From IMG/VR virus record IMGVR_UViG_3300028920_000037, positions 64,001 to 128,000 of that record: a stretch of DNA of 64,000 bases; one strand, 5' to 3'. Origin of the DNA: a virus. Of the stretch, positions 7,380 to 46,569 are shown piece by piece (positions within the stretch are counted from its first letter, which is position 1; the number at the start of each line of letters is the position of its first letter). The notes beneath the pieces are model-generated. The model searched no databases and was not told the DNA's origin. It worked only from the letters and a program-made list of their open reading frames with translations. A program made the translations under genes and the position numbers.

Positions 7380-7385
7380 GTGCTC

Positions 7386-8228: not shown

Positions 8229-8830
8229 AGAAGGCACCTCACAAGAGGACACAGCTCATCGTGATCGAAGGTCCTGATCGCGTGGGCAAGGAAACACAGT
8301 CAAAGCTCCTCGTCAAGACGCTTCAGGGCCTCGGTTACTCTGCAACGCGTATCGAGATCCCGTTCAACGACGGTGTTACGTACAAGCTCATCTACTGGAT
8401 GCTTGGCAATGGCCTCGCGAAGAAGTTCAACAACCTATTCCAGGCAATCCAGATTCTGAACAAGTACGTCTGTCAGACGCTTGAGCTACCGAGGTATGAG
8501 GAGCAGTACGACTACGTTATCCTTGATAGATGGCATCTCTCGTCTGAGGTCTATGGTGAAGCCAGCGCTGTGAACAAGGAACTTCTTGATATCGTTGCAA
8601 GGGTCCTGACAAGGGTCGATACGACGTTTGTCCTCTTGGGTCCTCCACACATGAAGGAAGGCCGCGACGTCTACGAAAGAGACACAGAATTTCAACAGAA
8701 CGTCAGAAAGATCTACAAGGGCATGACAGAAAAGGACCCGAGCCTTGTTCAGATCAAGGCCGACCAACCTATAGAAAGCGTACATGATGCAATCATGTCG
8801 TACCTCTCGTTGCGAGGAAAGTTGGAATAG
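8225..8830 (+). CDS. tmk: thymidylate kinase
   Basis: EGPDRVGKETQ P-loop, ILDRW..S..VYG. Start at the ATGA overlap with thyX. Confidence 0.85.
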   Translation: MKKAPHKRTQLIVIEGPDRVGKETQSKLLVKTLQGLGYSATRIEIPFNDGVTYKLIYWMLGNGLAKKFNNLFQAIQILNKYVCQTLELPRYEEQYDYVILDRWHLSSEVYGEASAVNKELLDIVARVLTRVDTTFVLLGPPHMKEGRDVYERDTEFQQNVRKIYKGMTEKDPSLVQIKADQPIESVHDAIMSYLSLRGKLE

Positions 8831-8835
8831 GATAA

Positions 8836-9480
8836 GTGCCCTATCAAATCATAGTAGCAGATCCGCCTTGGAAGTTCAGCGATAGGCTGAAGAACATGGG
8901 CAACAAGGTGAAACGCGGCGCTGAACACGTCTACAAAGGACACGTATTGTCGATCGCGGATATCAAGGCGCTCCCGATTAGGCAGTATGCCGATCCAAAC
9001 GGTTCAGTGCTTGCGCTGTGGGTTCCGAGTACGATGCTTCAAGACGGCCTCGATACAATGAAGGCATGGGGTTTCGTGCAAAAGCAAACGTTCGTTTGGG
9101 TGAAGCTTAAAAGGGCGTTTTTGAACGAGGTCGATGCAAATCATGCTCTTCGCATGGGCATGGGTCACCTGCAGAGGCAGTGCCATGAAATCGGACTGAT
9201 CGGAACGATGGGCAGCCCGTATGGGTTGCTCATGAACAGAGCACAGCGTTCAACGTTCTTCGATGAAGCGTTTGAAGAAGAAGAGCTGAAGGGAGTGACG
9301 ATGTTCGATCTGAACCACCGTCACTCCCAGAAACCAGAGGTGCTACAGGATCGGTTCGATATGATGTTCCCAACGTCGCAGAAGCTCGAGCTGTTCGCAA
9401 GGCGTACCAGGCCTAGTTGGACGTGTCTCGGGAACGAAATTGATGGAAAAGACATCCGTCAGGCGCTATCAGAGATCTAG
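8836..9480 (+). CDS. MT-A70 family N6-adenine methyltransferase
   Basis: ADPPW, LALWV, FVWVK, HSQKPE, LELFAR, W..LGNE. Confidence 0.9.
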   Translation: MPYQIIVADPPWKFSDRLKNMGNKVKRGAEHVYKGHVLSIADIKALPIRQYADPNGSVLALWVPSTMLQDGLDTMKAWGFVQKQTFVWVKLKRAFLNEVDANHALRMGMGHLQRQCHEIGLIGTMGSPYGLLMNRAQRSTFFDEAFEEEELKGVTMFDLNHRHSQKPEVLQDRFDMMFPTSQKLELFARRTRPSWTCLGNEIDGKDIRQALSEI

Positions 9481-9506
9481 ACAGAGTAGAATTGCTCTTG
9501 GAGGAA

Positions 9507-9776
9507 ATGTATATGTCTCAGAAGTTCAAGCACAGCGACCAGGTCTGGCACAGAGTCGTGCAAATCGTGCAAGAGGCAATGATCATGGGCGTTGATTGTG
9601 TCGACCTTCTTCGACAGATTGAGGTCATGTCAGACGACAAGGACAACCTTGTTCTGACGCCAGAATACATCAGATCGGTCGGAAAGATGCACGAGAAGTG
9701 GCTCGCGGATGCCGTTCGACTTCAGGAAGATCAGACCAACGCGAAGAACGTGGTCATTGATCCGAACATGAACTAG
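9507..9776 (+). CDS. hypothetical protein
   Basis: ORF with GGAGG RBS, tightly packed between neighbours. Confidence 0.6.
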   Translation: MYMSQKFKHSDQVWHRVVQIVQEAMIMGVDCVDLLRQIEVMSDDKDNLVLTPEYIRSVGKMHEKWLADAVRLQEDQTNAKNVVIDPNMN

Positions 9777-9778
9777 GT

Positions 9779-10150
9779 ATGGCGCAGGATAAGCTCAAGG
9801 CGATGTGGGATCAGCAGTTCGCGTTTATGCGGTTGCTTCAACAGGAACGCGACTTTCCGCAGTTTCCTGTTGATCTTTCTGAAAAGAAAGGACAACGGTT
9901 TTTAAAGGACATCACACATGAATGCATGGGTGAGCTCTTTGAGGCAAACCAACACCTCAAGAATTCAAAAAAGCACCGCGTCACAGAGGTCACAGAATTT
10001 GAACGTGAAAAATACATTGAAGAATTGTGCGATTCATTGCACTATTTTTTCGAAATCTGTATTGCCAGTGGGATCTCACTTGATGAATTATACACAGCGT
10101 ACATGACAAAGGGTGAGATCAACGTCGAGAGAATCAAAGGCGGTTATTGA
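9779..10150 (+). CDS. all-alpha NTP pyrophosphatase (MazG/dimeric dUTPase/dCTPase-like)
   Basis: ECMGELFE and EELCDSLHY acidic metal-binding helices, K..IN..R tail. Confidence 0.75.
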   Translation: MAQDKLKAMWDQQFAFMRLLQQERDFPQFPVDLSEKKGQRFLKDITHECMGELFEANQHLKNSKKHRVTEVTEFEREKYIEELCDSLHYFFEICIASGISLDELYTAYMTKGEINVERIKGGY

Positions 10151-14429: not shown

Positions 14430-15371
14430 ATGAGAACTAAAACGATTCTCTTGCTTGTCGGACTTCCGGCGAGTGGCAAGTCAACATACGCTTTCGACCT
14501 GATGAAGAGGGAACGCAGGTGGAAGCGTGTTTCACGCGACGATATCAGGTTGATGCTCGATGGAGTCGAGTTCGATCCAAAGAACGAGTCATTCGTCACG
14601 AAGATTGAGGATGCCTCCGTCGAGGCGGTACTTCGTGCTGGATACGATGTTATCATCGATGCAACACATTTGAATGTGCAGTCGCGGAACAAGTGGTTGC
14701 AGTTCGCGGCGCACTTTGGTGACGTTAAGATCATTTCGAAGAACTTTGATATCAGTCTGGAAGATGCGCTGCGAAGGAACGATCTACGCAACCAAGCAGG
14801 TGCACAAAATGTTTCACCCGATGTCATTGAAAGGATGTACGATAGGTACGTCAAGAAAAACGGCCTTCCAAAGGAACTCGATGAATACTTCCCGAGTCCA
14901 GCATTCGTGCAGGCAGAGGTAGATGAATCGCTTCCTTATTGCGTCGTGTGCGACCTTGACGGGACGCTTGCGGACAACTCATGGAGGAACGTTTACGAGG
15001 CTACCGATTGTGAGCGTGATCCAGTGATCAGATATGTTAAGGATGTGCTTTTTGCCGTACATGAAAAGTTCGGCGATTCAATCATATTTGTAACAGGTCG
15101 TGAGGAACAGTTTCGTGAAGGAACAGAAGAGTTCCTTACAAATGCTGGATTTATGTGGACCAGTAGTGACAGATCTATGCGGGCAAACGAGCTTCATATG
15201 CGCTCCAACACAGATAAGCGCAAGGACTACGTTGTTAAAAAAGAAATTATCACTGAATTTCGCAAGAGGTTTAATATCAGGTTCTGCCTCGAGGACAGGC
15301 CACGAAACTGTCGCATGATGCGGTACGAACTCGGCCTTCCGGTCCTCCAGGTTGCAGATGTGGAGTTCTGA
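14430..15371 (+). CDS. pseT: polynucleotide 5'-kinase/3'-phosphatase (T4 PseT-like)
   Basis: GLPASGKST, SRDDIR, IIDAT kinase domain, followed by a DLDGTL...VTGR...EDR HAD domain. Confidence 0.9.
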   Translation: MRTKTILLLVGLPASGKSTYAFDLMKRERRWKRVSRDDIRLMLDGVEFDPKNESFVTKIEDASVEAVLRAGYDVIIDATHLNVQSRNKWLQFAAHFGDVKIISKNFDISLEDALRRNDLRNQAGAQNVSPDVIERMYDRYVKKNGLPKELDEYFPSPAFVQAEVDESLPYCVVCDLDGTLADNSWRNVYEATDCERDPVIRYVKDVLFAVHEKFGDSIIFVTGREEQFREGTEEFLTNAGFMWTSSDRSMRANELHMRSNTDKRKDYVVKKEIITEFRKRFNIRFCLEDRPRNCRMMRYELGLPVLQVADVEF

Positions 15372-15870: not shown

Positions 15871-16185
15871 ATGATTGAAAGCGACTTCTACGAACAGAGT
15901 GTCAAGAACAAGGAAAAGTTCCCACAGAATGCAATGTACATCGCCCTTGTTTTTAAGCAGGGATCTCAACACGTTCCAGCGTATGATCGCCACGATCCTC
16001 CTGAAGGCACGTACTGTCCAACGGAAGAGTGCGACGCGTATGTCTTTGGAGACAAGGAAACGCTCGACATGTTTGCCATGCGAGCGATGCACCTCAACAT
16101 GAAGTACGTCATGTTTGAGCTAGGAAGCCAGCTTACAACGCATGTTACAGTCGACGTCAAACCGAAGATGGAGCCTACGCGATGA
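15871..16185 (+). CDS. hypothetical protein
   Basis: ORF with GAGG RBS and ATGA overlap with the next gene. Confidence 0.6.
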   Translation: MIESDFYEQSVKNKEKFPQNAMYIALVFKQGSQHVPAYDRHDPPEGTYCPTEECDAYVFGDKETLDMFAMRAMHLNMKYVMFELGSQLTTHVTVDVKPKMEPTR

Positions 16186-16982
16186 TTGTTAAGTACCCGC
16201 GGACGCAACACGTCAGGGGCTCGCACCTTCAATACGGTGATGAGGACCTCGATGCGGTGTCGTTCGATGATCTGCGAGGCAAGCACCTCGTTGTCGAAGA
16301 AAAGATCGATGGAACAAACTCTGGAATCTCGTTCGAATCAGGACGACTCATGCTCCAGTCACGAGACCACTACCTACGTGGAGGCCCACGTGAAAAGCAG
16401 TTCGATCTTCTGAAGCAGTGGTCTAGCATGTGGCGGCAGGACCTGAACGACATCCTCGACGAGCGCTACGTGATGTACGGAGAGTGGATGTTCGCGAAGC
16501 ACACATGTTTTTACGACATGCTTCCACACTACTTCATGGAGTTCGACGTTTGGGACAAGGAACGAGGCTTCTTTCTTGATACATCTTCTCGATACGCGCT
16601 GTTGCGTAGCAGGAATCACGGTGTAAACATCGAACCTGTTCTTGTTGTCGCTGAAGGAATGTTCGGTTCGCTCGACGCCCTGAAGGAGCTGGTGTGTGAT
16701 TCACACTTCAAGTCTCGGCAGTGGCGTGCTGACCTAACAAGGCAAGCGTTGCTCGCTGATGTCGATCCTGATGTTGCCAAATTTCACACCGACATGAGTG
16801 ACCTGATGGAAGGTCTCTACGTCAAGTGGGAAGAGGACGGCATCGTCAAGGGACGCTACAAGTTCGTACGTGAATCGTTTACGAACCACGTCCTCAGTCA
16901 GGACCAACACTGGCACGACAGGCCAATCATACAAAATTCGCTGCGTCCAGGTGCCTTTAACGCGATGTTTGGTACAATGTAG
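16182..16982 (+). CDS. RNA ligase family (Rnl2-like nucleotidyltransferase domain)
   Basis: KYPRT.H, EEKIDGTN (motif I), YGEW (III), FDV (IIIa), EGLYVK (IV), RYKFV (V). Confidence 0.85.
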   Translation: MIVKYPRTQHVRGSHLQYGDEDLDAVSFDDLRGKHLVVEEKIDGTNSGISFESGRLMLQSRDHYLRGGPREKQFDLLKQWSSMWRQDLNDILDERYVMYGEWMFAKHTCFYDMLPHYFMEFDVWDKERGFFLDTSSRYALLRSRNHGVNIEPVLVVAEGMFGSLDALKELVCDSHFKSRQWRADLTRQALLADVDPDVAKFHTDMSDLMEGLYVKWEEDGIVKGRYKFVRESFTNHVLSQDQHWHDRPIIQNSLRPGAFNAMFGTM

Positions 16983-16984
16983 CA

Positions 16985-17815
16985 ATGGCACGTTACGCTT
17001 GGGCAACAGACGTACATCTAGATCACCTGAGAGACTCGTCTCAGGTGATTGCATTTGCAGAGATGATCGTCGCAACGAACTGCGACGGGGTCATCATCTC
17101 AGGGGACATCTCGATCGCGAAGCATGTGACGTATCACCTTGCGGCGATCGAAAAGGTTCTTCAGAGGCCGATCTACTTCGTTCTTGGGAACCATGACTAC
17201 TATGGCGGGACGATCGAGGCAGTTCGCAAGGAGATGAGCAACCTTGCGAGGATCTCACCGTTCCTCAAGTACCTCCCATTGCAGAGCTACCACATGCTCA
17301 ACAGCTCGACGGCGATCGTCGGTCATGATTGTTGGTACGACGGGATCCTCGGCAACCCGCAGGGATCGAAGTTTCATCTGACCGATTGGAGCGCCATCAG
17401 TGATTACAGGAACGACTACATGAATCCTCGAAAGTCCGAGGAAGAGAAGCGCAACCTGATCATCGGAACATCGAGGGACCTTGCGACCGAAGGCGTCATA
17501 CACATCCAGAAGGGCATCAAGGACGCGTTCAGGTACGCTCGTAGGGTGATCGTCGTCAGCCACGTCCCGCCGTATGCTGAATCACACATCTACGAAGGCA
17601 AGATCGGCAACGACGATGCGATGCCGTGGTTCACATGCAAGCTGTTGGGCGACATGCTGTCTGATGCATCGAAGGCATTCCCAGACAGGAAGATTGTTTC
17701 GCTCTCGGGTCACACACATGGCCAGTACCAAGGCAAGAAGACAGACAACCTCGACGTCCTTGTTGGTGGTGCTAGGTACGGAAATCCAATGATCGAAACA
17801 ATCATTGATATCTGA
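16985..17815 (+). CDS. calcineurin-like metallophosphoesterase
   Basis: TDVH, SGDI, LGNHD, SHVPP, SGHTH. Confidence 0.9.
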   Translation: MARYAWATDVHLDHLRDSSQVIAFAEMIVATNCDGVIISGDISIAKHVTYHLAAIEKVLQRPIYFVLGNHDYYGGTIEAVRKEMSNLARISPFLKYLPLQSYHMLNSSTAIVGHDCWYDGILGNPQGSKFHLTDWSAISDYRNDYMNPRKSEEEKRNLIIGTSRDLATEGVIHIQKGIKDAFRYARRVIVVSHVPPYAESHIYEGKIGNDDAMPWFTCKLLGDMLSDASKAFPDRKIVSLSGHTHGQYQGKKTDNLDVLVGGARYGNPMIETIIDI

Positions 17816-18594
17816 TGACTGACGAGATTATCAGCGTCGATGGAGGCTGGCTTATCAAAGCAGATGCGGCGGTCCAACAGACCGTCTGGGACGTGCTCGA
17901 CCTCGTCGGTCAGAATAGGTGGATGATCTACACAGATCCTCCTTACGGCAGCATCGTCAAGGAGGGCTGGGACGTCAAACTTCAGGGTGAGGAACACGGT
18001 GAGTGGATGCTCAACTGGACGAACATGTGGGCGCACCACCTCAATGAAGGAGCTGCGTTCTACGTTTGGGGAGGCGTGGGAAAGCACTTGAATAGGTCGT
18101 TCTTCTACTACGCTGCGAAGGTCGAGCACCGCACACAGCTCAAGATCCAGAACGTGATCACCTGGAAGAAGCGTCGAGGCATAGGGACGGCCTACAATTA
18201 TCTCTTCACGCGTGAGGAGTTGCTCTTTATGCTCAAGGAAGGCAAAAACGTGCAGCCTCTCGTGTTCAACGTGCCACTGCTAGATGAGCTCCGCGGCTAT
18301 GCGGGTTACAACAACAAGTACCCAGCCAAGAGCCCGTACAAGAGGCGATCGAACGTTTGGACAGACGTCACCGAAATCCTTCGTGGTAAGAAACACCCTG
18401 CACAGAAACCCGTTCGTCTCGCGGAGATCGCGATCGAGACATCATCCCATAGGAAGGACGTCGTTGTTGACCTTTTCGCTGGTTCGGGTTCTACGGGTGT
18501 CGCCGCTCACCGCTTAGGTCGCGATTTCGTCCTTGTAGAGAACGATGACGCTACGTTTGAAGAACTCAAGCGAACCTTCTCTTGTAAAGCGTAA
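17815..18594 (+). CDS. DNA amino-methyltransferase (N4-C/N6-A, beta class)
   Basis: TDPPY precedes HPAQKP and DLFAGSGSTG. Confidence 0.88.
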   Translation: MTDEIISVDGGWLIKADAAVQQTVWDVLDLVGQNRWMIYTDPPYGSIVKEGWDVKLQGEEHGEWMLNWTNMWAHHLNEGAAFYVWGGVGKHLNRSFFYYAAKVEHRTQLKIQNVITWKKRRGIGTAYNYLFTREELLFMLKEGKNVQPLVFNVPLLDELRGYAGYNNKYPAKSPYKRRSNVWTDVTEILRGKKHPAQKPVRLAEIAIETSSHRKDVVVDLFAGSGSTGVAAHRLGRDFVLVENDDATFEELKRTFSCKA

Positions 18595-23360: not shown

Positions 23361-23888
23361 ATGGAACACGACGAGGAACCGATCAACGCACTGTGTAGGA
23401 CGGCAAACATGGTCGATGTGTTTGCTGTTCTGATCTACAAGCACGACCCGATGTCGCTCCAGTCTCCCGATCCACTCGAGTATGAATCTGAAGCGTTATC
23501 GATCACCGCACGGTTCATTGAGTCGGGCGTGCACGCTGCAAACGATGACGTTGCTGTGCCTGCTGCAGTCGAGATCGTAAGGAACGCGTTTATCTTCTGG
23601 TTTGAAGACGATGATGCAGCACTCAGCGCTCGTGCAAAGGGAGCGGACTACGGTCCGCTCGCAAAGGAGCTTGTTGAAGCGCTTCGCACAGAATTTGTGG
23701 AGGAGTTTGCAGAGCTCGATGAAGAATCGCCCACTGGCGTGCAGGCAGAGTTTGCTGCCGCTGTTGGCTTGAACGTTGAGTTTCCGCTGAGCGAACGTAC
23801 AACGCCCGGAACGCCTCGTGCCAAGGTCGTTGCAGAGGATAACATGGATCTTGATGGTCCACCAATCATCATCAGGGAGAAAAAGTGA
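23361..23888 (+). CDS. hypothetical protein
   Basis: ORF with GTGA overlap with the next gene. Confidence 0.65.
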   Translation: MEHDEEPINALCRTANMVDVFAVLIYKHDPMSLQSPDPLEYESEALSITARFIESGVHAANDDVAVPAAVEIVRNAFIFWFEDDDAALSARAKGADYGPLAKELVEALRTEFVEEFAELDEESPTGVQAEFAAAVGLNVEFPLSERTTPGTPRAKVVAEDNMDLDGPPIIIREKK

Positions 23889-24862
23889 AGAACGTTCTCA
23901 TCACCGGTGCCGCAGGGTTCCTAGGTAGTCACCTTGCCCAAAGGTTCATCAACAACGGAGACTTCGTCATAGGAGTCGACAACTTTTCGACGGCACTCGG
24001 CGTAGATGCAATTCACTTCACTGCGCTTCAGGTGCAGAAGCACTTTGAGTTCTATAGGATGGACATCCGTGATCTTTTAAAGATCGGCACCCTCATCGCA
24101 AGGTTCAAGCCGTCGCTCATCCTGAACTTTGCGTGTCCAGCATCACCACCAAGGTACCAGGCTGAACCGATCCAAACCTTGATGACGAGCGTTCAGGGAC
24201 TAAACAACGTGCTTTCGGCCGTCAGGCTGGCCTGTATCAGGCCCACGATCATCCACGCGTCGACCAGCGAGGTCTATGGAGACCCAGAGATGTCTCCACA
24301 ACCTGAGACGTACTTCGGTCGCGTGAACTCGTATGGACCGCGTAGCTGCTACGATGAGGGCAAGCGTGCTGCAGAGGCACTGTGTTTCGACTATGCGAAC
24401 CTGGGTATGGATATCAGGCCGGTCCGCATCTTCAACACCTATGGTCCTCACATGGACCCCGATGACGGCCGCGTCGTCAGCAATTTCATCTGCCAGATGC
24501 TTCGCGACGAACCGATGACAATCTACGGCGACGGTGAGCAGACGCGTTCGTTTTGCTACGTTGACGACCTCGTAGAAGGGATCTATCGTGTCAGTGAGCT
24601 TCCTGTCGGAGTATTGAACGGACCGATCAACCTGGGGAATCCAAACGAGTTCACGATCAAGGAACTCGCGTTCAAGGTTGCAAAGGCACTTGGCAAGAAG
24701 CCTCAGATCACGTTTGACGCGTTTCCCATCAACGACCCGCTTCAGCGCAAGCCTGACATCACGCTTGCGAAACAATTTCTCAATGGGTGGGGACCAAAGG
24801 TCCAGCTCGACGATGGACTTCCTCCGACGATTGAGTGGTTTAAGAATCTTCTAGAGAAGTGA
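23885..24862 (+). CDS. UDP-glucuronate decarboxylase (UDP-xylose synthase), extended SDR
   Basis: TGAAGFLGS, ACPASP..YQ, ASTSEVYGDP, YDEGKR, RIFNTYGP, DGRVVSNF. Confidence 0.9.
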   Translation: MKNVLITGAAGFLGSHLAQRFINNGDFVIGVDNFSTALGVDAIHFTALQVQKHFEFYRMDIRDLLKIGTLIARFKPSLILNFACPASPPRYQAEPIQTLMTSVQGLNNVLSAVRLACIRPTIIHASTSEVYGDPEMSPQPETYFGRVNSYGPRSCYDEGKRAAEALCFDYANLGMDIRPVRIFNTYGPHMDPDDGRVVSNFICQMLRDEPMTIYGDGEQTRSFCYVDDLVEGIYRVSELPVGVLNGPINLGNPNEFTIKELAFKVAKALGKKPQITFDAFPINDPLQRKPDITLAKQFLNGWGPKVQLDDGLPPTIEWFKNLLEK

Positions 24863-36967: not shown

Positions 36968-37253
36968 TGCAAACCACGTCCACTTATTGTAAAGTGGACG
37001 TATGGGCTTCTTTAAGAGATGGTTCGGCTACGTGCGAGTCGAGCTGTTTAAATGCGCTGGCGTCGTAACTCTTTGGAATGATGCACCGGGGTGACCACTC
37101 AATGAAACCATTTGATGGAACATCGTGGTCGCTGCACCTCGGTGTCTATCTGTCGTTCTGGGTATGGGGAAGAGCTGACGATGCCATCGAGTATGATGGC
37201 ATCGTAATTCCAAATTGGGGCTTCGGTCCCCTGTTCCTCTTCAATTACTACTG

Positions 37254-37811
37254 ATGGAACAAATGCCAAAGACACGTCAACACATCATCTGCTTCGTCGG
37301 TCCTGATATGACCGGCAAGACAAACATCTCTCGTGAGCTTTCGCGTAGGACGAGCATCCCGCGGTTCAAGGCGTCATCCGAACACATGACGTTCACCGAT
37401 GAACAGGATCGTTTCCTTACTCAGCTTCGCGTTGCGGACGTCAGGCAGCTCGACCTCCTGCAGCAGGTCGGATTTTCGATGATCATGGACCGTGGTTGGC
37501 CGTGTGAATACGTGTATGCGAAGTTCTTCGATAGGACAACTGACATCGAACAGCTTCGTTCGAACGATAGGAGCTACGCAGCGCTCGGAGCACAGGTCGT
37601 CTTCTGTTATCACGATGATTATAATGGATTCCGTGACGATCTCAATCCAAAAATCGGTCCCGCTGAACTGAGGCGACTACACGACCTGTATGAAGAATTC
37701 TTTGAGCTAACTAGGTGTCCAGTAGTGCGGCTATGTGTGGATGACCTGAACCTCGATCGTCAGATGCGCGATCTAAGGGATGGGCTTCACATCGAACTTG
37801 TAAGGAAGTGA
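37254..37811 (+). CDS. second deoxynucleotide monophosphate kinase (TMK-like, divergent)
   Basis: VGPDMTGKTN P-loop, MDRGWPCEYVY. Confidence 0.75.
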   Translation: MEQMPKTRQHIICFVGPDMTGKTNISRELSRRTSIPRFKASSEHMTFTDEQDRFLTQLRVADVRQLDLLQQVGFSMIMDRGWPCEYVYAKFFDRTTDIEQLRSNDRSYAALGAQVVFCYHDDYNGFRDDLNPKIGPAELRRLHDLYEEFFELTRCPVVRLCVDDLNLDRQMRDLRDGLHIELVRK

Positions 37812-38173
37812 TCATGTCAGAAAGAGTGATTCACTGGAGCAACTGGGCGTCTCAGCCGTGCATACAGATCGCGTGTACAGGTGAGACGTTTCATCCTTGG
37901 GGGTGCGACAGCACGTTGCCGAAGGATGTCTTCAATGCTGATTTGAAGTTTCATCCTGAAATTCTCTATGCATTCGATGAGTCCCTCGTGACGTGCAACA
38001 AGTGCAAGAAGATCGATGGCTTTCAAGAGGGGCTCGATCGCGTCCTTGCGTACAGGCAGAAGGTCAGGGAGTCCGGGTTGACCGAACGTGAATACGCAGA
38101 GCGCGAAACACGTAGGACACTCAAAATGCTGCGTGAGAAAGGAAGACTTGTACATGATGTTCTAGGAGGGTAG
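37808..38173 (+). CDS. hypothetical protein
   Basis: VTCNKC motif. Packed ORF. Confidence 0.55.
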   Translation: MIMSERVIHWSNWASQPCIQIACTGETFHPWGCDSTLPKDVFNADLKFHPEILYAFDESLVTCNKCKKIDGFQEGLDRVLAYRQKVRESGLTEREYAERETRRTLKMLREKGRLVHDVLGG

Positions 38174-38183
38174 GTTTTCATGC

Positions 38184-38734
38184 ATGGAAGTCTACTTTTC
38201 GCGTGACGTCGAGGCAGACGGGCCGATCCCTGGTCCAAATTCAATGCTGTCGCTTGGATGTGCGGCGTTCAAGGACGACAGGCTGCAGAATACATTCAGC
38301 GTCAACCTCGAGTTTCTCGACGGGGCAACGCCAGACGAACACACGACGGAGGAATTCTGGGACAGGAATAAATCGGCGTACGCCGCAACGAGGACAATCT
38401 CAAACGCCCCAGCACTGCGATGTTGATGTTTGTGAAGTGGGTAGAGTCGTTCAACGGGAGACCCGTGTTTGTAGGTTACCCGGCGACGTATGATTTCATG
38501 TTTGTCTACTGGTACCTGATGCGTTTCGCAGGCAGGAGCCCGTTCTCGTTCAGCGGTCTGGACATCAAGACGATGGCTATGGTGATGCTAAAGAAGGAGT
38601 TTCGGGCATCTACAAAGCGAAACATGCCGAAGCGCTGGTTTTCAAGGTCGCCTCATACGCACGTCGCTGTCGATGATGCAATCGAGCAGGGTGAGATGTT
38701 CTGCAACATGAGACAGGAGCTGTTTGGACGATGA
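38184..38734 (+). pseudogene. DEDDh 3'-5' exonuclease (Rv2179c-like) split by a single-base frameshift near 38396
   Basis: DVEADGP in one frame, then YDF, LDIKT and H.A.DDA in the other. Adding one A restores ...[15 protein letters not shown]. Confidence 0.75.
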
Positions 38735-39093
38735 ACGACTTAGATGTTGTTATCACTGTTCGTGCAGAAGGACATGGTAATACATTTAAGATCGCAAAAA
38801 TCCTTGAAGAAGTGGGCGGACTTACTGTATACACGGTGCTAAACACGACACATACGATCTTTGGGCACTGCGATAAGTCAGTGTTTGTCTTGCTGTCCGC
38901 CCACCCGAGCGTTGAGCGAATCGAAGAGAATGAGTAGCTACTGTGATCCAGGCGCAGACAGAGCGGTTCTTTTGGAGATGAAGTTCGGCCAGACTTCGGT
39001 ACGTTTTCGAAAAAACGTGTTGAGGATCTATGCTGGATGGTGGGTCATCTCTACGCTGTGTGAGATCAACGATGCAGTATCACGAGTACTGTT

Positions 39094-39327
39094 TTAGTCG
39101 TCGGACTTCTTTTCATCCTCTGCCTGAGGGGCGATCAGGATCGTGTCAGTCGGTCCTTGGATCCATGCTATGTTGTCGTTTGTTTCGGCAACGACCATGC
39201 CATGCGTTTCATGAAAGATCGCTCGGATGACAGTACAAATTACGTCGATGTCGTCGCTTTCGATCGTGACGACGTCTGGCACCTTCTTAAGCAGGTTGTA
39301 CTTCATCCTTACTTTCATCTCAATCAT
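39094..39327 (-). CDS. hypothetical protein
   Basis: Minus-strand ORF with TACTTA at its 5' end (39327-39332). Confidence 0.55.
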   Translation of the reverse strand: MIEMKVRMKYNLLKKVPDVVTIESDDIDVICTVIRAIFHETHGMVVAETNDNIAWIQGPTDTILIAPQAEDEKKSDD

Positions 39328-39355
39328 AAGTAAGCAACAACGTTAGGCAAACAAC

Positions 39356-39721
39356 ATGCGATTGACTGTACTGAAGAGTAAGATCCACGGCGCCATTGTT
39401 ACGGGAGCAAACCAAGAGTACATGGGGAGCATCTCGATCGATCCTGTTCTCATGGAGGGCGCAAACATCCTATCGAACGAGCAGGTACACGTCTGGAACG
39501 TCACAAACGGTGAGCGCATCATTACGTATGCGATTCCGGCGTCTGAACAGCAAGGTTCGATCTGCATCAACGGCGCAGCTGCACACCTGTTCTCGTCTGG
39601 CGACAAGGTGATCATCGCTACGTTCTGTGAGATGGACGCCTGGAAGGCGAACGAATACACACCTATCGTTTTAATCATGGATGGGCTGAACAGCAACCGC
39701 GTTAAGGAGAAGCGTCAGTGA
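39356..39721 (+). CDS. panD: aspartate 1-decarboxylase (pyruvoyl)
   Basis: LKSKIH, Y.G|SISID autocleavage site, NGER..TY.I, ICINGAAA. Confidence 0.93.
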   Translation: MRLTVLKSKIHGAIVTGANQEYMGSISIDPVLMEGANILSNEQVHVWNVTNGERIITYAIPASEQQGSICINGAAAHLFSSGDKVIIATFCEMDAWKANEYTPIVLIMDGLNSNRVKEKRQ

Positions 39722-39963
39722 TGAATGTCTTTGAAGACGATGAAGAGCCTCACGACCGCGTTGCCGACGCCGTGTTCGAACTCATTGTACATGCGTCGAG
39801 AGATGGTGAAAATGTGTGGAAGCAGATGTGGTTGAAACTGACGCCGTCTGAGGTTAGAAACGTCATCGAAGATCCTGATGCGTACACAAAGATGATCGAA
39901 TCGCTCGCACCCAGGATCCACGACCAACTCGAGTCGATCGTGGACAAGATCGAGTACGTATGA
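39718..39963 (+). CDS. hypothetical protein
   Basis: Packed ORF. Confidence 0.5.
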   Translation: MMNVFEDDEEPHDRVADAVFELIVHASRDGENVWKQMWLKLTPSEVRNVIEDPDAYTKMIESLAPRIHDQLESIVDKIEYV

Positions 39964-40145
39964 AACCAACAGACGAAAGAGGAAGCATGAAGAAGCTTCT
40001 GGCGCAATTTGTGTTGCAAACTGATATTGTTGTTGAAATCAAATCAATCAACAACTAAAATACGCAAGTGATGCAATATCGTTTGGAAGGACATCAACGT
40101 GCCATTTCCCAACGATTGAAATTGATCGTGGATTTCCATAGAAAC

Positions 40146-41447
40146 ATGAAGAAATTACTGATACAAACACAATTAAGCAACTACGATACACAAGGTAAAT
40201 TTATCCTTGAGTGCGATAGCGGGTACAACATGATGATGGGTAGAACTAGAGTTCTCCTTCAACAAGTTCCTGACTTGAAGGTCTTCATCACAGGTCCTCA
40301 GCTAAACCAATGTAGAACCTCGCCGTATGATCTCAACGCCGATCTGTTCAATGATTTTGGCAACAGGTTGAAGTACATCCCGCTGCTGCTGATCCCGAAC
40401 GCCCTTGCTACGCGTTACGATTTTGTGTTCGAAGACATCGCACGAGCGTTGGACCTGGGCGAAGATGGGCATGAACCATTTACACACGTCTTCATCAACG
40501 ATCCGATGTTGTTGAGGAACTTTCAGGCCCTGTTCTTCCTCAAGGGAAAGTACAGACCGAAGTACATCGTCCATTCGCACTTCATCGACAATCCAGAGTG
40601 TCCGAAGTTCCCGACCGAGGCTTCGCTCTGGATGGGACAGATGGAAGCAGCGTTCAAGGCTGACTTCAACTTCTGGCAGTGCGAATCGTCGCTGCAGGTG
40701 TTCCTCAAATCTGCGATGAACTGGCTGTGTGAGGACCTGGTCGCTGTGATCAGGCACAAGTCACTTCCTTGGGACGATGGGTACAGCAGTGAGGAGATAA
40801 ACTCTCCAATCAATATGAACAACGTCAGGTTTGATGTAAATGACCTAGCACGAAAGACGGTAGGCAAGACTGTCGTTTTCGTACCGAACAGGATCGGTGG
40901 TTTTGGTCGCAGCAGCGACTACACGAACTGTGGAAGGTTCATGTTTGAGACGGTACCTCGTGTGCGGAAGATGAGGGACGACTTCGTCGTCATCGCTGGA
41001 AATCCGAGCCAGAAGATCCTGAACCACGAGCTCGAGGAGCTATGTCCGGCGTTCCTCAACCTTGTTCCGGATGCATTGAACAGAGACGAGTACAAGTACG
41101 TTGCAAGGCACATTCAGGACATCAGTGTCGGACTCTACAACCAGGACAGCTACGGTGGCACGGCAGCTCGTGAGCTCTGCGACGTAGGAACGATCCCACT
41201 GTGGGTCGACAACTATGAGTACACCCAGATTGCGCTCCTTGCCGGTTTACCGAAGGACATGATGATCGCTCCTGACCTCTCCAATATGGATGAGACGCTC
41301 GTGTTTATGCTTGACTGGATTTCTCAAGTCAAGCATGATGCTCCTGAAGAGATCAAAGGCTGGCATGATCGTCTTAGCGATGTTGTCTACAGGCGTTGTT
41401 CATACGAGGCGACATCCGACGAGGCGATCCGGCACATGGGTCTTTGA
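40146..41447 (+). CDS. putative glycosyltransferase (GT-B-like)
   Basis: About 430 aa with a two-domain alpha/beta pattern, VFVPNRI, LNRDEY...YGGTAARE...G.IPL. Adjacent to an NDP-sugar epimerase. Confidence 0.6.
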   Translation: MKKLLIQTQLSNYDTQGKFILECDSGYNMMMGRTRVLLQQVPDLKVFITGPQLNQCRTSPYDLNADLFNDFGNRLKYIPLLLIPNALATRYDFVFEDIARALDLGEDGHEPFTHVFINDPMLLRNFQALFFLKGKYRPKYIVHSHFIDNPECPKFPTEASLWMGQMEAAFKADFNFWQCESSLQVFLKSAMNWLCEDLVAVIRHKSLPWDDGYSSEEINSPINMNNVRFDVNDLARKTVGKTVVFVPNRIGGFGRSSDYTNCGRFMFETVPRVRKMRDDFVVIAGNPSQKILNHELEELCPAFLNLVPDALNRDEYKYVARHIQDISVGLYNQDSYGGTAARELCDVGTIPLWVDNYEYTQIALLAGLPKDMMIAPDLSNMDETLVFMLDWISQVKHDAPEEIKGWHDRLSDVVYRRCSYEATSDEAIRHMGL

Positions 41448-41472
41448 ACACCGTGTGCGTGAGTTGTACAAT
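41444..41472 (+). promoter_or_regulatory. sigma70-like promoter
   Basis: TTGAAC-N17-TACAAT, with ATG at 41481. Confidence 0.7.
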
Positions 41473-41480
41473 ATTCATGT

Positions 41481-42440
41481 ATGTCAAAACGTGTCTTGAT
41501 CACAGGTGGCGCGGGCTTCATCGGTAGCAACCTAGCCCGTCGCTGTGTTGATGAAGGATATAAGGTTGTCGTAGTCGATAACCTTTCAAATGGCCATAGG
41601 GAGTTCCTGCCCTATGGTCTCGATGAGTTTTGGGAGGACGACTTCTCGGCGGAGTGGGTCCTTGGCGTCGTCTCATCGGGGGTGTTTGATACCATTTTCC
41701 ACGTCGCGGCTGTACCGCGTGTCAGCTACTCGGTCGAACACCCGATTGAGACGAACGAGACGAACGTATCGAAGACACTCGCTTTGATAGACGCTGCAAA
41801 AGAGAAGACGCGAAGGTTCATCTTTTCGTCCTCGTCAAGCGTCTACGGCGGAGCAGACGTGCTGCCGACGCCAGAGACCGAACCGTTCAACGCAAAATCA
41901 CCTTACGCGTTGCAGAAGGTCATCATTGAGCAGTACCTGAAACTGTATCACGACATCTACGGGCTCGATAGCTGCAGCCTGCGCTACTTCAACGTCTTCG
42001 GACCGAACCAGCTAGGAGATTCTCCTTACGCGACTGCTGTAAGCGCGTGGTTGACGGCGATCTTCAAGGGAGGTGAATGCCGAAGTGATGGCAACGGTGG
42101 GCAGTCAAGGGATATGTGCTATGTTGACAACGTTGTTGAAGCAAACATGCTTGCGATGAAGAAGTCAAGCTACCTCGGTGCAGAATCATACAACGTTGCG
42201 TGTGGCGACAGTACGACGAATAACGAGATCCTTGAACACCTCAAGGAACGCTTCGGTAACAAGGTCAAGGTCAAGAACGCACCGTGGCGACCCGGCGATG
42301 TCATGCACACCCAGGCTGACATCACAAAGATCCACAACGACCTTGGATACGATGTGAAGGTTAGGTTTTGGGACGGCCTCGACAGGACAATCGCGTGGTT
42401 CGAGGGTTCGAAGCTTGCAAAGCTTAACGGGAAGGTGTAG
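41481..42440 (+). CDS. NAD-dependent NDP-sugar epimerase (GalE/WbpP-like)
   Basis: TGGAGFIGS, SSSSVYG, YALQK, LRYFNVFGP. Confidence 0.9.
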   Translation: MSKRVLITGGAGFIGSNLARRCVDEGYKVVVVDNLSNGHREFLPYGLDEFWEDDFSAEWVLGVVSSGVFDTIFHVAAVPRVSYSVEHPIETNETNVSKTLALIDAAKEKTRRFIFSSSSSVYGGADVLPTPETEPFNAKSPYALQKVIIEQYLKLYHDIYGLDSCSLRYFNVFGPNQLGDSPYATAVSAWLTAIFKGGECRSDGNGGQSRDMCYVDNVVEANMLAMKKSSYLGAESYNVACGDSTTNNEILEHLKERFGNKVKVKNAPWRPGDVMHTQADITKIHNDLGYDVKVRFWDGLDRTIAWFEGSKLAKLNGKV

Positions 42441-42449
42441 GTTGTAAGC

Positions 42450-42689
42450 ATGTCCGCTGAGCTGCTCTCCATGCTCGATGGCAAGAGAGGTACGTCTGTT
42501 TTGCTGTCAATGAACGTACACGGATACGCGTTCCTGACGCTCATGGAACCGATTGGACTCGATATGTCTCCGGGAGGAAGCATTTCGTATACGTTCGCTC
42601 CAGATGAGGACGGCCTGAGAAACGCTCGATCGTTTGTTGAATCGCTACAACAGTGGATCGAGCACATCGAGTTAACGGAAAAGAAATGA
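42450..42689 (+). CDS. hypothetical protein
   Basis: Packed ORF. Confidence 0.5.
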   Translation: MSAELLSMLDGKRGTSVLLSMNVHGYAFLTLMEPIGLDMSPGGSISYTFAPDEDGLRNARSFVESLQQWIEHIELTEKK

Positions 42690-42891
42690 GCACATACGTG
42701 ACAAGTGATGCGTGGCATCGTCTCTGCTGTGAGTTAGACCTTCGAAAAGCTGTCTTTGAAACGCTTGCAAACATTGGCAGCGAAATGAATTTTCAGCTTC
42801 CACCAGAAGAGTTACTAAAACTTGTGATGAAACGTTCGAAGGGAACATTGGATCCTGCGGTCGCAAAGACGTACATTGAAGGGCTTTACAA

Positions 42892-43923
42892 ATGACGTTG
42901 CACATATATGAAAACTTCACCGATGCATACCGTGGCCTTCTTGAGGACGTCTATTCTTCTCCTGAATTTGTTTGCGCGCCGCGCGCGCAAAAGATAAAGG
43001 AAAAGCTCGGTGTTCGATTCGTGATTACGAATCCACTCGCCAGGCTTCCATTCATCAGACCCCGCGACTTTGCAGTCAACTACATTGTCGCTGAAGGTAT
43101 CTGGTACTTCGCCGGTATTGAGCTCACAGAGTGGATCTCGTACTACAGCAAGTTCTGGGAAAAGATCAGCGATGACGGTAGGAACGCGAATTCTGCGTAC
43201 GGCGCGAGGATATTCAAACCTCACAAACGAGCGGGAAAAGATCCAACAAACCAGCTTGATAGCTGGACACAGTGGGACTGGTGCATTAAGGAGCTGGTGA
43301 ACGATAACGACTCGCGTAGGGCGGTCGTGCACATCAGGAACCCTCTCGATTCTCGGTACGCTGTGAAGGATGTTCCTTGTACCCTCACGTTGCAGTTTTT
43401 CCTGAGGGACGACAAGGTCCACCTCTGTGTGGCGATGCGATCGTCTGACCTTTGGTTGGGCATCGCAAATGACGTTCCGGCGTTCACGCTCTTTCAAGAG
43501 CTAATGGCGATCGACCTTGAAAAAAGGCTTCGTCGTCCAATCGACGTCGGCACGTACACCCACATCAGCAACTCACTGCACATCTACGAACGTAACTTCA
43601 AGAAAGTTGAAGAGGTGATCGAGGAACCAGAATCCGAGCGCTCTGGGTCGATATCTATGCCCAAGATGCCGTCAGCCCCGCCGCTTGAAATGCTTCTCAT
43701 AGCAGAACAGGACATTCGAGGTGCTACGTCTACCGAAGAGGTTGGACGTCATGTCGCTGTCTTCTCTGATCTGGCAGCGTTGCATGGGACCATCGAACGC
43801 TACTGGGTCGATTGGATCAAGGTGCTTGCAAGTCATCGCTGCGGCAAGCTCGACGACAAAGATGCTCAGAGGCGTTTTCTTGATGAAACATCATGGGAAG
43901 GCTACCACTTCTTCGACAGGTGA
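42892..43923 (+). CDS. thymidylate-synthase homolog, probable dCMP hydroxymethylase/methylase
   Basis: SRRA, DVPCT (catalytic Cys), MRSSDLWLGIAND (Asp at the specificity position), SLHIYE. Confidence 0.8.
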   Translation: MTLHIYENFTDAYRGLLEDVYSSPEFVCAPRAQKIKEKLGVRFVITNPLARLPFIRPRDFAVNYIVAEGIWYFAGIELTEWISYYSKFWEKISDDGRNANSAYGARIFKPHKRAGKDPTNQLDSWTQWDWCIKELVNDNDSRRAVVHIRNPLDSRYAVKDVPCTLTLQFFLRDDKVHLCVAMRSSDLWLGIANDVPAFTLFQELMAIDLEKRLRRPIDVGTYTHISNSLHIYERNFKKVEEVIEEPESERSGSISMPKMPSAPPLEMLLIAEQDIRGATSTEEVGRHVAVFSDLAALHGTIERYWVDWIKVLASHRCGKLDDKDAQRRFLDETSWEGYHFFDR

Positions 43924-43926
43924 CAC

Positions 43927-44508
43927 ATGACATGCATCATTGGGCTTGAGTGCGACGGCGAGGTCTACGTTGGAACCGACAGTGCGTTGAGTGACACATG
44001 GACGATCTCGTCACTTGCGGCTCGTGAGAAGGTTTTCGTCAAGCACGACATGATCTTCGGAGTCTGTGGCTCGATGAGGTTGGCGCAGCTGCTACACCAC
44101 GCCTTGGAGGTTCCAGAGCACGAGGAAGAAAAGGATGTCATGTCATACCTTGTTGTTGACTTTGTCGACTCTCTGAGGGAGATGCTCAAGGACAAGGGAA
44201 CTCTGTACACGTCGGATGATGAAGGCAAAGTTGAGTACCTGCCGAACTCAGCGTTCATCCTTGGATACGGTGGCAAGGTCTATGTCGTTGATGAGGACAT
44301 GCAGGTGTCTCGTTCGGTCGGTGGGTTCATGTGCGAAGGCTCGGGCAAGGAGGTCGCAACCGGAGCGATGCAGGTCCTAAAGGACAGGCACGACCTCACG
44401 CCCGAGGATAAGATCAGAAAGGCGCTCGAGGCGAGTGCCCTTCACACGTGCTATGTCCAAGGACCCTTCCATGTCATGAAACTGTCGGACGATGACGATG
44501 ACGACTGA
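43927..44508 (+). CDS. HslV/proteasome beta-like Ntn peptidase
   Basis: M-TCIIG N-terminal Thr, GTDS, KVF, GSG. Confidence 0.75.
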   Translation: MTCIIGLECDGEVYVGTDSALSDTWTISSLAAREKVFVKHDMIFGVCGSMRLAQLLHHALEVPEHEEEKDVMSYLVVDFVDSLREMLKDKGTLYTSDDEGKVEYLPNSAFILGYGGKVYVVDEDMQVSRSVGGFMCEGSGKEVATGAMQVLKDRHDLTPEDKIRKALEASALHTCYVQGPFHVMKLSDDDDDD

Positions 44509-44777: not shown

Positions 44778-45347
44778 ATGAATCCTGAGTTCATAATTTA
44801 TTGTGGCCCAATGTTTTCGACGAAGACCACTTCAATGTTCTTACGTCTAGAACGCTTTGAGCTCCAACATAGAGCCACACGGCTCTTCAAACCGATCGGC
44901 GATGAACGGTATAGCACCGACGAGGTCGTTACGCACTCTGGCTGGAAACGTCCGGCAACAAGGGTCTCTAAGGGCCTTGACATCCTGAAGCAGATCGAAG
45001 AGGACCCGCCGAGCATTGTTGCAGTCGATGAGGCGTTTATGATACAGGACGTCTACAAGGTCCTCCCGTGGTTGTTCAAGAACGGTGTGACGATTGTCGT
45101 CGCTAGTCTTGATCTTGCGTTCAACGGAAAGTCGTTCAAGGAGGTCGAAAAGATGCTGCCGTGGGCGACAGAGGTACACAAGTGTCCTGCGGTATGTACT
45201 GTCTGTGGCGCAAATGCGTTTTATACGCATAGAAAGACGTCTGACGATGAAGACATCATCGTAGGGGGCGCTGAGATGTACGAACCTAGATGTTTTTCTC
45301 ATCACCCTGTTATAAATGAGGGATTTGGAAATGTTTCTTCGCGTTGA
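44778..45347 (+). CDS. tdk: thymidine kinase (type II)
   Basis: GPMFSTKT, FKP..D.RY, VDEAF, CTVCG, VGG.E.YEPRC. Confidence 0.92.
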   Translation: MNPEFIIYCGPMFSTKTTSMFLRLERFELQHRATRLFKPIGDERYSTDEVVTHSGWKRPATRVSKGLDILKQIEEDPPSIVAVDEAFMIQDVYKVLPWLFKNGVTIVVASLDLAFNGKSFKEVEKMLPWATEVHKCPAVCTVCGANAFYTHRKTSDDEDIIVGGAEMYEPRCFSHHPVINEGFGNVSSR

Positions 45348-46569
45348 AAAGAATGGTCGCAAAAAGAAGCATATTATCAAATGCGATAACTGTGGTATCG
45401 AAGTTGAACGTTACGCCGCACATGCAAAAGGCAATGTTCACTTTTGCTCTAGAAGATGTAGCAATGCGGCAAAACGAGCGTCGATTCTCGTAACAAAAGC
45501 GTGTGAAACTTGCGGAAAAGAATTTATAAGGATCCCATCACTTTCTGGTCGCTATTGTTCCAAATCATGCGCAATAAAGTCACGATACGTCAACAAGTCA
45601 ACTTGGACAAAGGTTGCTTGTGACACGTGTGGGAAAACAATCGAAAAACGTAAGATCCACGTTGGCCAACGTTCATACTGTTCACGAGAGTGTTTGAGTA
45701 TTGGGCATGCTAAGACTCACTCTTCACATAACGTTCGATGTAACAAGGCAAAGGGTATAAAACGTGGAATCTATTTAACACTTGATGGTCGTTCGATCAA
45801 GTATGATTCTTCGTATGAACTTCGTCGTATGCGAGAATACGACTACATCATCGATGATGAACTTGAATCATGGGAACGATGTGATCTAATCGTACCTTAC
45901 ATCGATGTGAACGGCAAAAAGAGAAGTTATAATCCAGATTTTTTGCTTCGATACACTGATGGTTCTGTTGTTATCGAAGAAGTTAAGGGGCGTTTAACAG
46001 ACAATGATGTTTTGAAATTCAACGCGTTGATTTCGTATTGTGCACATCAAGGAGATAACGTACAGGCTAGGATGTTTTCAAATCCAGATTTTGATGATAT
46101 TGAGGTCAAAACAAGCGTGTACAAAAACGATTACGGTGTGTTTTCTAGGCCGACATTAGAGTACATCTTTATAAAGATGGCGCTTCTTCTCGCAGAACGT
46201 TCAACATGCCTTCGAAAGAAGGTAGGTGTTGTGTTTACAGATTCAGAGATGCGTCATGCGTACTGCGTTGGTTATAACGGAGATGAAAAGGGTGGCAAAA
46301 ATCAATGTGAATCCCTTGATCCCGGGAAGTGTAACTGCATACACGCAGAAATTAACGCATTGACGAAGAATAATATTGACATTACAGGATGTACGTGTTT
46401 TGTCACCCTGGCACCATGTCCGGTTTGTGCTAAGGTTTTGATTAATCGTGGCGTCAAAAAAGTGATTTATCACGAAGCATATAGAAATTCGAGAGGATTA
46501 CAACTGCTTCATCAGCGTGGTGTTGAAGTCGTAAAGTATGCTTCTTTAGAAACAACGTCTGGTTCCTAG
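45331..46569 (+). CDS. fusion of Zn-finger repeats, a TnsA-like endonuclease and dCMP deaminase
   Basis: Three CxxC...CSxxC repeats, YDSSYE..YNPDF..EEVKG, then RSTC, GYNG, HAE.NA, PC..C. Confidence 0.82.
   Translation: MFLRVEKNGRKKKHIIKCDNCGIEVERYAAHAKGNVHFCSRRCSNAAKRASILVTKACETCGKEFIRIPSLSGRYCSKSCAIKSRYVNKSTWTKVACDTCGKTIEKRKIHVGQRSYCSRECLSIGHAKTHSSHNVRCNKAKGIKRGIYLTLDGRSIKYDSSYELRRMREYDYIIDDELESWERCDLIVPYIDVNGKKRSYNPDFLLRYTDGSVVIEEVKGRLTDNDVLKFNALISYCAHQGDNVQARMFSNPDFDDIEVKTSVYKNDYGVFSRPTLEYIFIKMALLLAERSTCLRKKVGVVFTDSEMRHAYCVGYNGDEKGGKNQCESLDPGKCNCIHAEINALTKNNIDITGCTCFVTLAPCPVCAKVLINRGVKKVIYHEAYRNSRGLQLLHQRGVEVVKYASLETTSGS

Follow-up and report, generated by a model that had tools for sequence, protein, structure and literature searches.

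It has been reported that homologs of thymidylate synthase (TS) with Asp at position 177 are enriched on cytosine-modified environmental phage DNA, and that a carbamoyltransferase turns 5-hydroxymethylcytosine (5hmC) into 5-carbamoyloxymethylcytosine (PMC8670742). Among such homologs, the change D169N is diagnostic of 5-hydroxy-deoxycytidine monophosphate (5-hydroxy-dCMP) synthases, and Asp at position 143 tracks hydroxymethyl, not methyl, products, the methylating enzymes having a bulky hydrophobic residue there (PMC13326640). The preference of MilA, a CMP 5-hydroxymethylase, for ribose rests on Ala176 and Lys133, and the variant A176S/K133R is deoxyribose-preferring (PMC5175136). Meanwhile, adjacent epimerase and glycosyltransferase (GT) genes in other phage clusters are experimentally needed together for 5hmC glycosylation, and metagenomic GT-B enzymes often neighbour TS homologs and epimerases (bioRxiv 10.1101/2023.12.21.572611). 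The locus considered here lies in a stretch of 64,000 nucleotides, positions 64,001 to 128,000 of the IMG/VR virus record IMGVR_UViG_3300028920_000037, which is called the window below. The window is a piece of a giant phage genome with nearly every gene on the + strand, and the genome searches covered the 140-kb record, about 39% of a 331-kb genome. A nucleotide kinase, a GT, an epimerase and a TS homolog lie together in it, and an earlier interpretation of the letters alone (the sequence-only reading) had tentatively assigned them to cytosine hypermodification. Our analysis points to the replacement of cytosine by 5hmC before replication, followed by glycosylation of the DNA, as the probable function of the locus; each chemical step, the DNA acceptor and the identity of the sugar are inferred from gene presence, active-site signature, homology, fold and synteny.

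The TS homolog was aligned with E. coli ThyA, T4 gp42, SPO1 gp29, gp42 of Serratia phage PS2, and RB69 gp48 together with five other 5-hydroxy-dCMP synthase-type proteins. The motif MRSSDLWLGIAND is present, and its final Asp aligns with N177 of E. coli ThyA, so that the cytosine-type residue claimed by the sequence-only reading at the specificity position is confirmed. All 12 active-site positions compared (W80, Y94, R126, D143, C146, T147, S167, D169, G173, D177, H207 and Y209) are the same as in T4 gp42 and PS2 gp42; in the numbering of the window protein, positions 143, 146, 169 and 177 are D160, C163, D186 and D194. Of these, Cys146 is catalytic, Asp177 sets the cytosine specificity, an acidic residue (Asp or Glu) at 143 gives access to water, and Asp169 is kept in enzymes of the gp42 type. 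In contrast, the six 5-hydroxy-dCMP synthase-type proteins (RB69, JS98, PM2, Acj9, Thanatos and DLP1) have A80, E143, N169 and V173, and the alignment did not find D169N in the window protein, which has Asp186 at this site. The closest solved relative is the mildiomycin-pathway enzyme MilA (1.2e-38), ahead of T4 gp42 (4.4e-13) and of true thymidylate synthases, which match more weakly, and the protein has a MilA-like C-terminal helical extension of about 100 residues. At the positions of MilA Ala176 and Lys133, however, the window protein has Ser184 and Arg142, residues that are invariant or nearly so in its family; as judged from the alignment, it therefore carries the deoxyribose state at the sugar-preference positions of MilA. 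The same active-site signature recurs in 68 of 71 related viral loci. Because position 169 is Asp rather than Asn, hydroxymethylation and not flavin-dependent hydroxylation is predicted, and because of the T4-type signature, Asp at 143, the Ser184/Arg142 pair and the recurrence in the related loci, the enzyme is predicted to convert dCMP to 5-hydroxymethyl-dCMP. The earlier view of this protein as a cytosine-type hydroxymethylase candidate thus extends to the full 12-site signature.

The related loci, 71 in number with 54 distinct TS sequences, are viral metagenome loci retrieved with an alignment of TS relatives. Their common gene order is DnaE, kinase, a variable slot, epimerase/TS, thymidine kinase (TK) and dCMP deaminase, with TK and dCMP deaminase following the TS gene in most of them. 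Within 10 kb of the TS homolog, an ortholog of the epimerase is found in 61 of the 71 loci, the kinase in 56 to 63, dCMP deaminase in 62, and a homolog of the MazG-like pyrophosphatase of the window in 32 to 33. The clustering of these genes is not due to chance. Among 66 strictly clustering loci, the slot holds the GT family of the window in 11, an unrelated 351-aa GT-like protein in 39 and a carbamoyltransferase type in 9, and the commoner slot GT (cluster c10) has no detectable homology with the window family (hhalign 1.5%). A UDP-galactopyranose mutase is present in the same locus in 15 of the 39 loci with the 351-aa protein. The carbamoyltransferase type consists of an ATP-grasp protein, a carbamoyltransferase and a cut-down TS-fold protein, and a 56-residue segment of the carbamoyltransferase is 45% identical to the proven 5hmC carbamoyltransferase; since some loci thus pair the shared TS family with a likely 5hmC carbamoyltransferase, they support indirectly the prediction that this family makes 5hmC. 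A quick TS tree, whose deep branches are unresolved and whose reference branches are long, says nothing of a donor or of the sequence of events; in it, closely related TS homologs come with different slot types, which suggests that slot contents have been swapped frequently. No paper describing this clade or the GT family was found in the literature.

Some features of individual relatives may be recorded here. The loci with a carbamoyltransferase in the slot, between kinase and TS, include L007, L011-L013, L020, L030, L033 and L059; the carbamoyltransferase has 589 aa, and its 221-aa companion is recognised as a cut-down thymidylate-synthase fold from ESM Atlas features and structure. In L031, L034-L037, L041 and L049-L051, a UDP-galactopyranose mutase (Pfam GLF 1e-77) directly follows the TS gene, and the 351-aa GT-like protein, the kinase and the epimerase come next, an arrangement that suggests galactofuranose on modified cytosine in this sub-clade. 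In Lactobacillus phage ATCCB (L077, 3989-7044), a gene annotated as beta-glucosyltransferase and one for a UDP-galactopyranose mutase come after a TS homolog with D143, D169 and D177, and this cultured phage may carry galactofuranosyl-5hmC.

The GT of the window belongs to a rare family, with 94 representatives among 1.8 billion proteins, whose members begin at the ATG at 40146 although the open reading frame (ORF) opens at 40068. Pfam GT models do not match the ORF. Its AlphaFold2 model, with a predicted local distance difference test score (pLDDT) of 94.9, has a GT-B, GT4-like fold of the retaining type, with two Rossmann-like domains and a C-terminal Gly-Gly...Glu nucleotide-sugar motif, and G363, G364, E369 and R275 vary little or not at all. 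The nearest structures are BshA, MshA and sucrose-phosphate synthase (Foldseek; VIA Z up to 29 over about 350 residues, 27 to 29 for BshA and MshA), which belong to the GT4 enzymes with UDP-sugars as donors. Phage DNA arabinosyltransferases are reported to have the same structural neighbours (PMC13326640). With a profile of six intact homologs of the RB69 gp46:47 type (JS98, PM2, Acj9, Thanatos-1, DLP1 and PS2), hhalign gave 96.5% with E 8.8e-10 over 277 columns; RB69 gp46 or gp47 as a single query was too weak, and the six-member profile was required. The gp46:47-type GTs are assigned as DNA arabinosyltransferases; in T4-like phages their genes come immediately behind that of the TS homolog, and in PS2 such a GT follows the hydroxymethylase-type gp42; the family is therefore not tied to 5-hydroxycytosine. 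The window GT is thus a candidate 5hmC DNA glycosyltransferase, for which DNA would be the acceptor. T4 beta-GT has no tblastn match in the 140-kb record, and no other recognisable glycosyltransferase is present in it. A 384-aa protein encoded next to the UDP-xylose synthase gene was considered as a further GT and rejected; it looks like a HEAT/LRV repeat protein, with a poor model. Separately, PS2 (L090, 717-3534) has three GT genes in a row after gp42 with the hydroxymethylase signature, namely the arabinosyltransferase homolog, an annotated beta-glucosyl-HMC-alpha-glucosyltransferase and a beta-GT.

The kinase at the head of the cluster had been described in the sequence-only reading as a divergent second deoxynucleoside monophosphate kinase in a T4-like scheme. 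A kinase is indeed encoded, although not one of the T4 gp1 kind: the family profile finds the SPbeta prophage protein YorR in the PDB (1e-10), Foldseek with the AlphaFold2 model (pLDDT 89.9) places YorR (3kb2) first and then deoxynucleoside and thymidylate kinases, and hhalign identifies it as a homolog of the RB69 gp45 family (98.5%, E 2.8e-15). T4 gp1 as a query in tblastn and phmmer found no gp1-type kinase in the 140-kb record. On these results, the YorR-like protein is the best candidate for the phosphorylation of 5-hydroxymethyl-dCMP.

The nucleotide pool enzymes lie on both sides of the cluster. Against T4 gp56, the MazG-like protein gives an hhalign match of 92.9% with E 3.7e-7 that covers only the C-terminal 69 columns; phmmer with gp56 against the ORFs of the record finds the same gene at 2.4e-5, and the PHROG for nucleotide pyrophosphohydrolase matches at 9e-13. 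The protein had no significant sequence match in the PDB, as a single sequence or as a profile. It is, on these matches, a relative of the gp56 dCTPase/dUTPase. The dTMP kinase (TMK) matches the corresponding NCBIfam model at 5.4e-13 with 49.1 bits, below the 83.25-bit cutoff of the model. Together with the dCMP deaminase, ThyX, TMK and TK, the gp56-like enzyme completes, as far as gene content indicates, a T4-type division of labour. Because ThyX and TMK would supply dTTP, the TS homolog would be free to act on dCMP, as the sequence-only reading had argued; the gene set that this requires is found, including TK and dCMP deaminase, which that argument had not drawn upon. Its further parallel with T4, where the hydroxymethylase is paired with a dCTPase, a kinase and glycosyltransferases, is likewise matched by the gp56-like pyrophosphatase, the nucleotide kinase, the GT and the epimerase.

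The following pathway can be proposed. The gp56-like pyrophosphatase would clear dCTP and dUTP from the pool and yield dCMP, which the TS-fold enzyme, with methylene-tetrahydrofolate, would convert to 5-hydroxymethyl-dCMP. The YorR-like kinase would phosphorylate this product, host enzymes would complete the synthesis of 5-hydroxymethyl-dCTP, and the phage DnaE would incorporate it, while dTTP would come from dCMP deaminase, ThyX, TMK and TK. After replication, the GT4-like GT-B enzyme would move a sugar from a UDP-sugar to the hydroxymethyl group, and the adjacent 4-epimerase would probably make the donor from a host UDP-hexose, most likely UDP-galactose or UDP-N-acetylgalactosamine (UDP-GalNAc). 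DNA decorated in this way would be shielded from restriction enzymes and other nucleases. The system is most likely a T4-like anti-restriction strategy built from different enzymes; the hydroxymethylation and the T4-like logic of the sequence-only reading stand, its divergent kinase is not of the gp1 type, and its pentose sugar is unlikely.

Several observations weigh against this pathway. The best tblastn match of the TS homolog in cultured phages has only 38.8% identity, and neither the kinase nor the GT has a tblastn match among 50,697 phage records. A megablast search with the region as query and phage records as the database found nothing either. In RB69 and DLP3, the enzyme shown to phosphorylate the modified dCMP is a gp1-type kinase, not the cluster kinase homologous to that of the window (PMC13326640). 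The epimerase is kept in 8 of the 9 loci of the carbamoyltransferase type, which show no recognisable GT; because it is retained there, it may serve a different purpose as a backbone gene and not be a dedicated supplier of the donor. The share of the genome covered by the searches, given above, counts on the same side.

As for the sugar, the epimerase keeps the catalytic Ser and the Tyr-x-x-x-Lys motif in alignment and is an extended short-chain dehydrogenase/reductase (SDR) of the WbgU/WbpP/GalE type. Its closest solved relatives are PDB 6dnt (5e-56), WbgU (1e-52) and T. maritima GalE (1e-51), and its score with the NCBIfam GalE model is 175 bits, below the 262-bit cutoff. A small residue at the position of a particular Ser in WbgU permits N-acetylated substrates, and the window protein has Thr there. 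A UDP-galactopyranose mutase is present in 15 to 20 of the related loci, and UDP-galactose-type chemistry is therefore indicated. A hexose or N-acetylhexosamine (HexNAc) made by the epimerase is ranked as more likely than a pentose.

The pentose donor was the weakest claim of the sequence-only reading, and it survives as the foremost alternative, though an unlikely one. Hydroxymethylation would proceed as above, the UDP-glucuronate decarboxylase (UDP-xylose synthase, UXS) would make UDP-xylose from UDP-glucuronate, the epimerase would convert it to UDP-L-arabinose, and the GT would add xylose or arabinose. The assignment of the UXS is strong: the SDR at 23885-24862 matches human UXS1 over its full length at 1.6e-78, the second-best family reaching 1.6e-37, which confirms the UDP-xylose synthase that had been proposed at 23885. 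Whole-record searches recovered a true UXS ortholog from 6 of the 10 records with this GT and from 1 of 10 large records that lack it (Fisher p 0.057, the records being related to one another), and the window GT is the only recognisable glycosyltransferase in the 140 kb that could use UDP-xylose. Nevertheless, the UXS gene lies 17 kb upstream in a separate conserved block, ahead of DnaE and syntenic with relative G001, and L017, L028 and L060, whose GT orthologs are just as similar (52 to 54%), show no UXS ortholog, the record of L017 being 78% complete. Of the 71 loci, 61 retain the epimerase, but only 5 have a true UXS within 10 kb; the 15 to 20 loci with a UDP-galactopyranose mutase nearly all have the epimerase; and the closest solved relatives of the epimerase act on UDP-hexoses and UDP-HexNAc. 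The UDP-glucose dehydrogenase (UGDH) that would feed the UXS was sought and not found in the 140 kb. A gene of the UGDH family is present in the two closest large relatives, which speaks for the pentose, but these genes lack the C-terminal domain, and the copy in G002 lies in a GDP-sugar/GT1 cluster, so that UGDH as phage-encoded support for the route is ambiguous. The two relatives' genes (L081, 2053-3027, - strand; L082, 1751-2716, - strand) encode proteins of 321-324 aa of the UDP-glucose/GDP-mannose dehydrogenase family with the N-terminal and central domains only, and the G002 gene belongs to a separate sugar cluster, its neighbours being a GDP-mannose 4,6-dehydratase, a second SDR and a GT1 enzyme.

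It is improbable that the DNA carries plain 5hmC or 5-methylcytosine while the GT, the epimerase and the UXS serve another glycan, of the virion or the host surface. Giant phages do have separate sugar clusters, such as the GDP-mannose dehydratase and GT1 of G002; the epimerase behaves as a backbone gene; and the acceptor of the GT is not readable from its fold. Against this, the GT stands between the kinase and the TS homolog, in a slot otherwise filled by other hydroxyl-decorating enzymes, and it is homologous to the assigned DNA arabinosyltransferases that directly follow the TS homolog in T4-like phages; the 5-methylcytosine variant is also opposed by Asp at 143, where methylating enzymes are bulky and hydrophobic (PMC13326640). 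Least credible of all is the view that, as in RB69, DLP3 and RL38J1, the TS homolog acts as a flavin-dependent 5-hydroxy-dCMP synthase and 5-hydroxycytosine is glycosylated directly through an ether bond: the kinase and the GT are homologous gene for gene to the RB69 gp45 and gp46:47 families, and MilA is the nearest solved relative of both enzyme types (PMC13326640 Table 1), but the TS homolog is without D169N and has W80, D143 and G173 for the A, E and V of the six such proteins, and related loci pair its family with a likely 5hmC-specific carbamoyltransferase.

The features on which the proposed hydroxymethylation and glycosylation pathway draws are collected in Table 1. An ORF scan found every gene named in the sequence-only reading as an open frame on the + strand; the clustered kinase, GT, epimerase and TS homolog were all recovered there by ORFs, Pfam and fold, as were, by Pfam matches at 7380-10150, the ThyX, TMK and MazG-like genes that had been placed elsewhere in the window.

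Table 1. Genes of the window assigned to nucleotide supply, cytosine modification and sugar metabolism
Feature	Position in window	Strand	Basis of assignment
ThyX	7380-8228	+	Pfam Thy1 7.6e-41
Canonical dTMP kinase (TMK)	8195-8830	+	Pfam Thymidylate_kin 2.5e-13
MazG-like all-alpha NTP pyrophosphatase	9779-10150	+	Pfam dUTPase_2
UDP-glucuronate decarboxylase (UDP-xylose synthase, UXS)	23885-24862	+	Human UXS1 1.6e-78
P-loop kinase	37215-37811, likely start 37254	+	Pfam AAA_28; PHROG 'thymidylate kinase'
GT-B glycosyltransferase	40146-41447 (ORF opens 40068, 459 aa)	+	No Pfam match; fold
NAD-dependent UDP-sugar 4-epimerase, 319 aa	41481-42440	+	Pfam Epimerase 3e-51
TS-fold dCMP 5-hydroxymethylase candidate, 343 aa	42892-43923	+	Pfam Thymidylat_synt E 1.7e-20
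Thymidine kinase (TK)	44778-45347	+	Pfam TK 9.6e-41
dCMP deaminase fused to endonuclease-like N-terminal part	45316-46569	+	Pfam dCMP_cyt_deam_1 1.2e-16

On the 3' side of the TS gene, an HslV-like gene, TK and the dCMP deaminase fusion follow in this order. The HslV/Ntn-hydrolase-like gene (43927-44508; PHROG peptidase HslV family 3e-19) comes directly after the TS gene, and its homologs adjoin the TS gene in about 7 relatives, mostly those that also have UXS. In the fusion, the deaminase domain corresponds to about residues 280-410 of the product, and the N-terminal region, which is in frame, matches HNH and TnsA-like endonucleases; the dCMP deaminases of the relatives are mostly stand-alone proteins of 140-180 aa. 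Between the kinase and the GT lies an intact gene for aspartate 1-decarboxylase, PanD (39356-39721), which keeps Lys9, His11, the self-cleavage site Gly24-Ser25 and Tyr58; the few 'phage' database matches of PanD resemble bacterial fragments. A role for PanD in the pathway was weighed and dismissed, as it has a counterpart in 0 of 71 related loci, and it is probably a lineage-specific insertion outside the module. In addition, two DNA methyltransferase genes of the MT-A70 and N6_N4_Mtase families are present (8836-9480 and 17815-18594), and the genome probably has methylated bases besides the cytosine modification. A polynucleotide kinase-phosphatase and an RNA ligase (14430-15371 and 16182-16982) lie near one another and resemble the T4-type tRNA repair pair.

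If the proposed pathway is correct, a decorated hydroxymethylcytosine would take the place of cytosine throughout a large clade of uncultured giant phages, widespread and all with DnaE-type polymerases, and the enzymes responsible would have at most a distant relationship to those of T4. The DNA of these phages would resist many restriction enzymes and could also bias the sequencing and cloning of environmental viromes, and the GT and the epimerase would be candidate tools for 5hmC labelling. One slot alternates in close relatives among at least three chemistries, namely two unrelated GT families and a carbamoyltransferase, a pattern consistent with an arms race against nucleases of the host. 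Since its kinase and GT are homologous, gene for gene, to those of the RB69-type clusters, the hydroxymethyl route and the hydroxy route would both go back to a single ancestral module, the TS chemistry alone having changed. Should the pentose be the sugar after all, the product would be an undescribed base, 5hmC O-linked to xylose or L-arabinose with a phage-made donor, and the phage would represent a second, independent route to pentosylated cytosine through a GT family that it has in common with the arabinosyl-5-hydroxycytosine phages.

Comparison with the T-even pathway reveals the same logic: the 12 of 12 TS sites, a gp56 homolog, dCMP deaminase and TK nearby, and a GT close to the hydroxymethylase gene. 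Unlike the T-even phages, however, the window has a TS homolog only 29% identical to gp42 and with a MilA-like C-terminal domain, a YorR-like kinase, a GT4-like GT, dTMP from ThyX and a sugar 4-epimerase inside the module. Gene for gene, the TS homolog, the base-proximal GT and the YorR/TMK-like kinase of the window have homologs in the glycosyl-5-hydroxycytosine clusters of RB69, DLP3, RL38J1 and relatives (Lee et al. 2026, PMC13326640), and the two sets of proteins have the structural neighbours 3kb2, 3c4q, 6kih, 3mbo and 8ixp in common. The window differs from these clusters in that its TS homolog has D169 and not N169, its GT is about 130 residues longer, and its sugar would be supplied by an SDR epimerase. 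The UDP-arabinofuranose genes of such clusters comprise an arabinose-5-phosphate isomerase and AfhE- and AfhF-like genes, and a search of the 140 kb for the SIS domain of the isomerase found none. MilA and BcmA, the CMP 5-hydroxymethylases, are close in another respect, MilA having 342 aa against 343 and the alignment passing the TS core to residue 276 of 343, but the window protein has the Ser184/Arg142 pair and stands in the context of phage replication, not of a nucleoside antibiotic. The carbamoyltransferase systems of Yang et al. 2021 (PMC8670742) resemble the relatives of the window that have a carbamoyltransferase in the GT slot, and their companions are likewise a TS homolog with Asp177, a PRA-PH/MazG-like gene and dCMP deaminase, although the slot of the window itself holds a GT. 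Finally, the 'subclass II' clusters of Pyle et al. (bioRxiv 10.1101/2023.12.21.572611; Cell Rep 2024) are alike in gene context, with a GT-epimerase pair beside the enzyme that makes 5hmC; in those clusters 5hmC arises after replication through a C5 methyltransferase and a TET-like dioxygenase, whereas in the window the TS homolog would act before replication.

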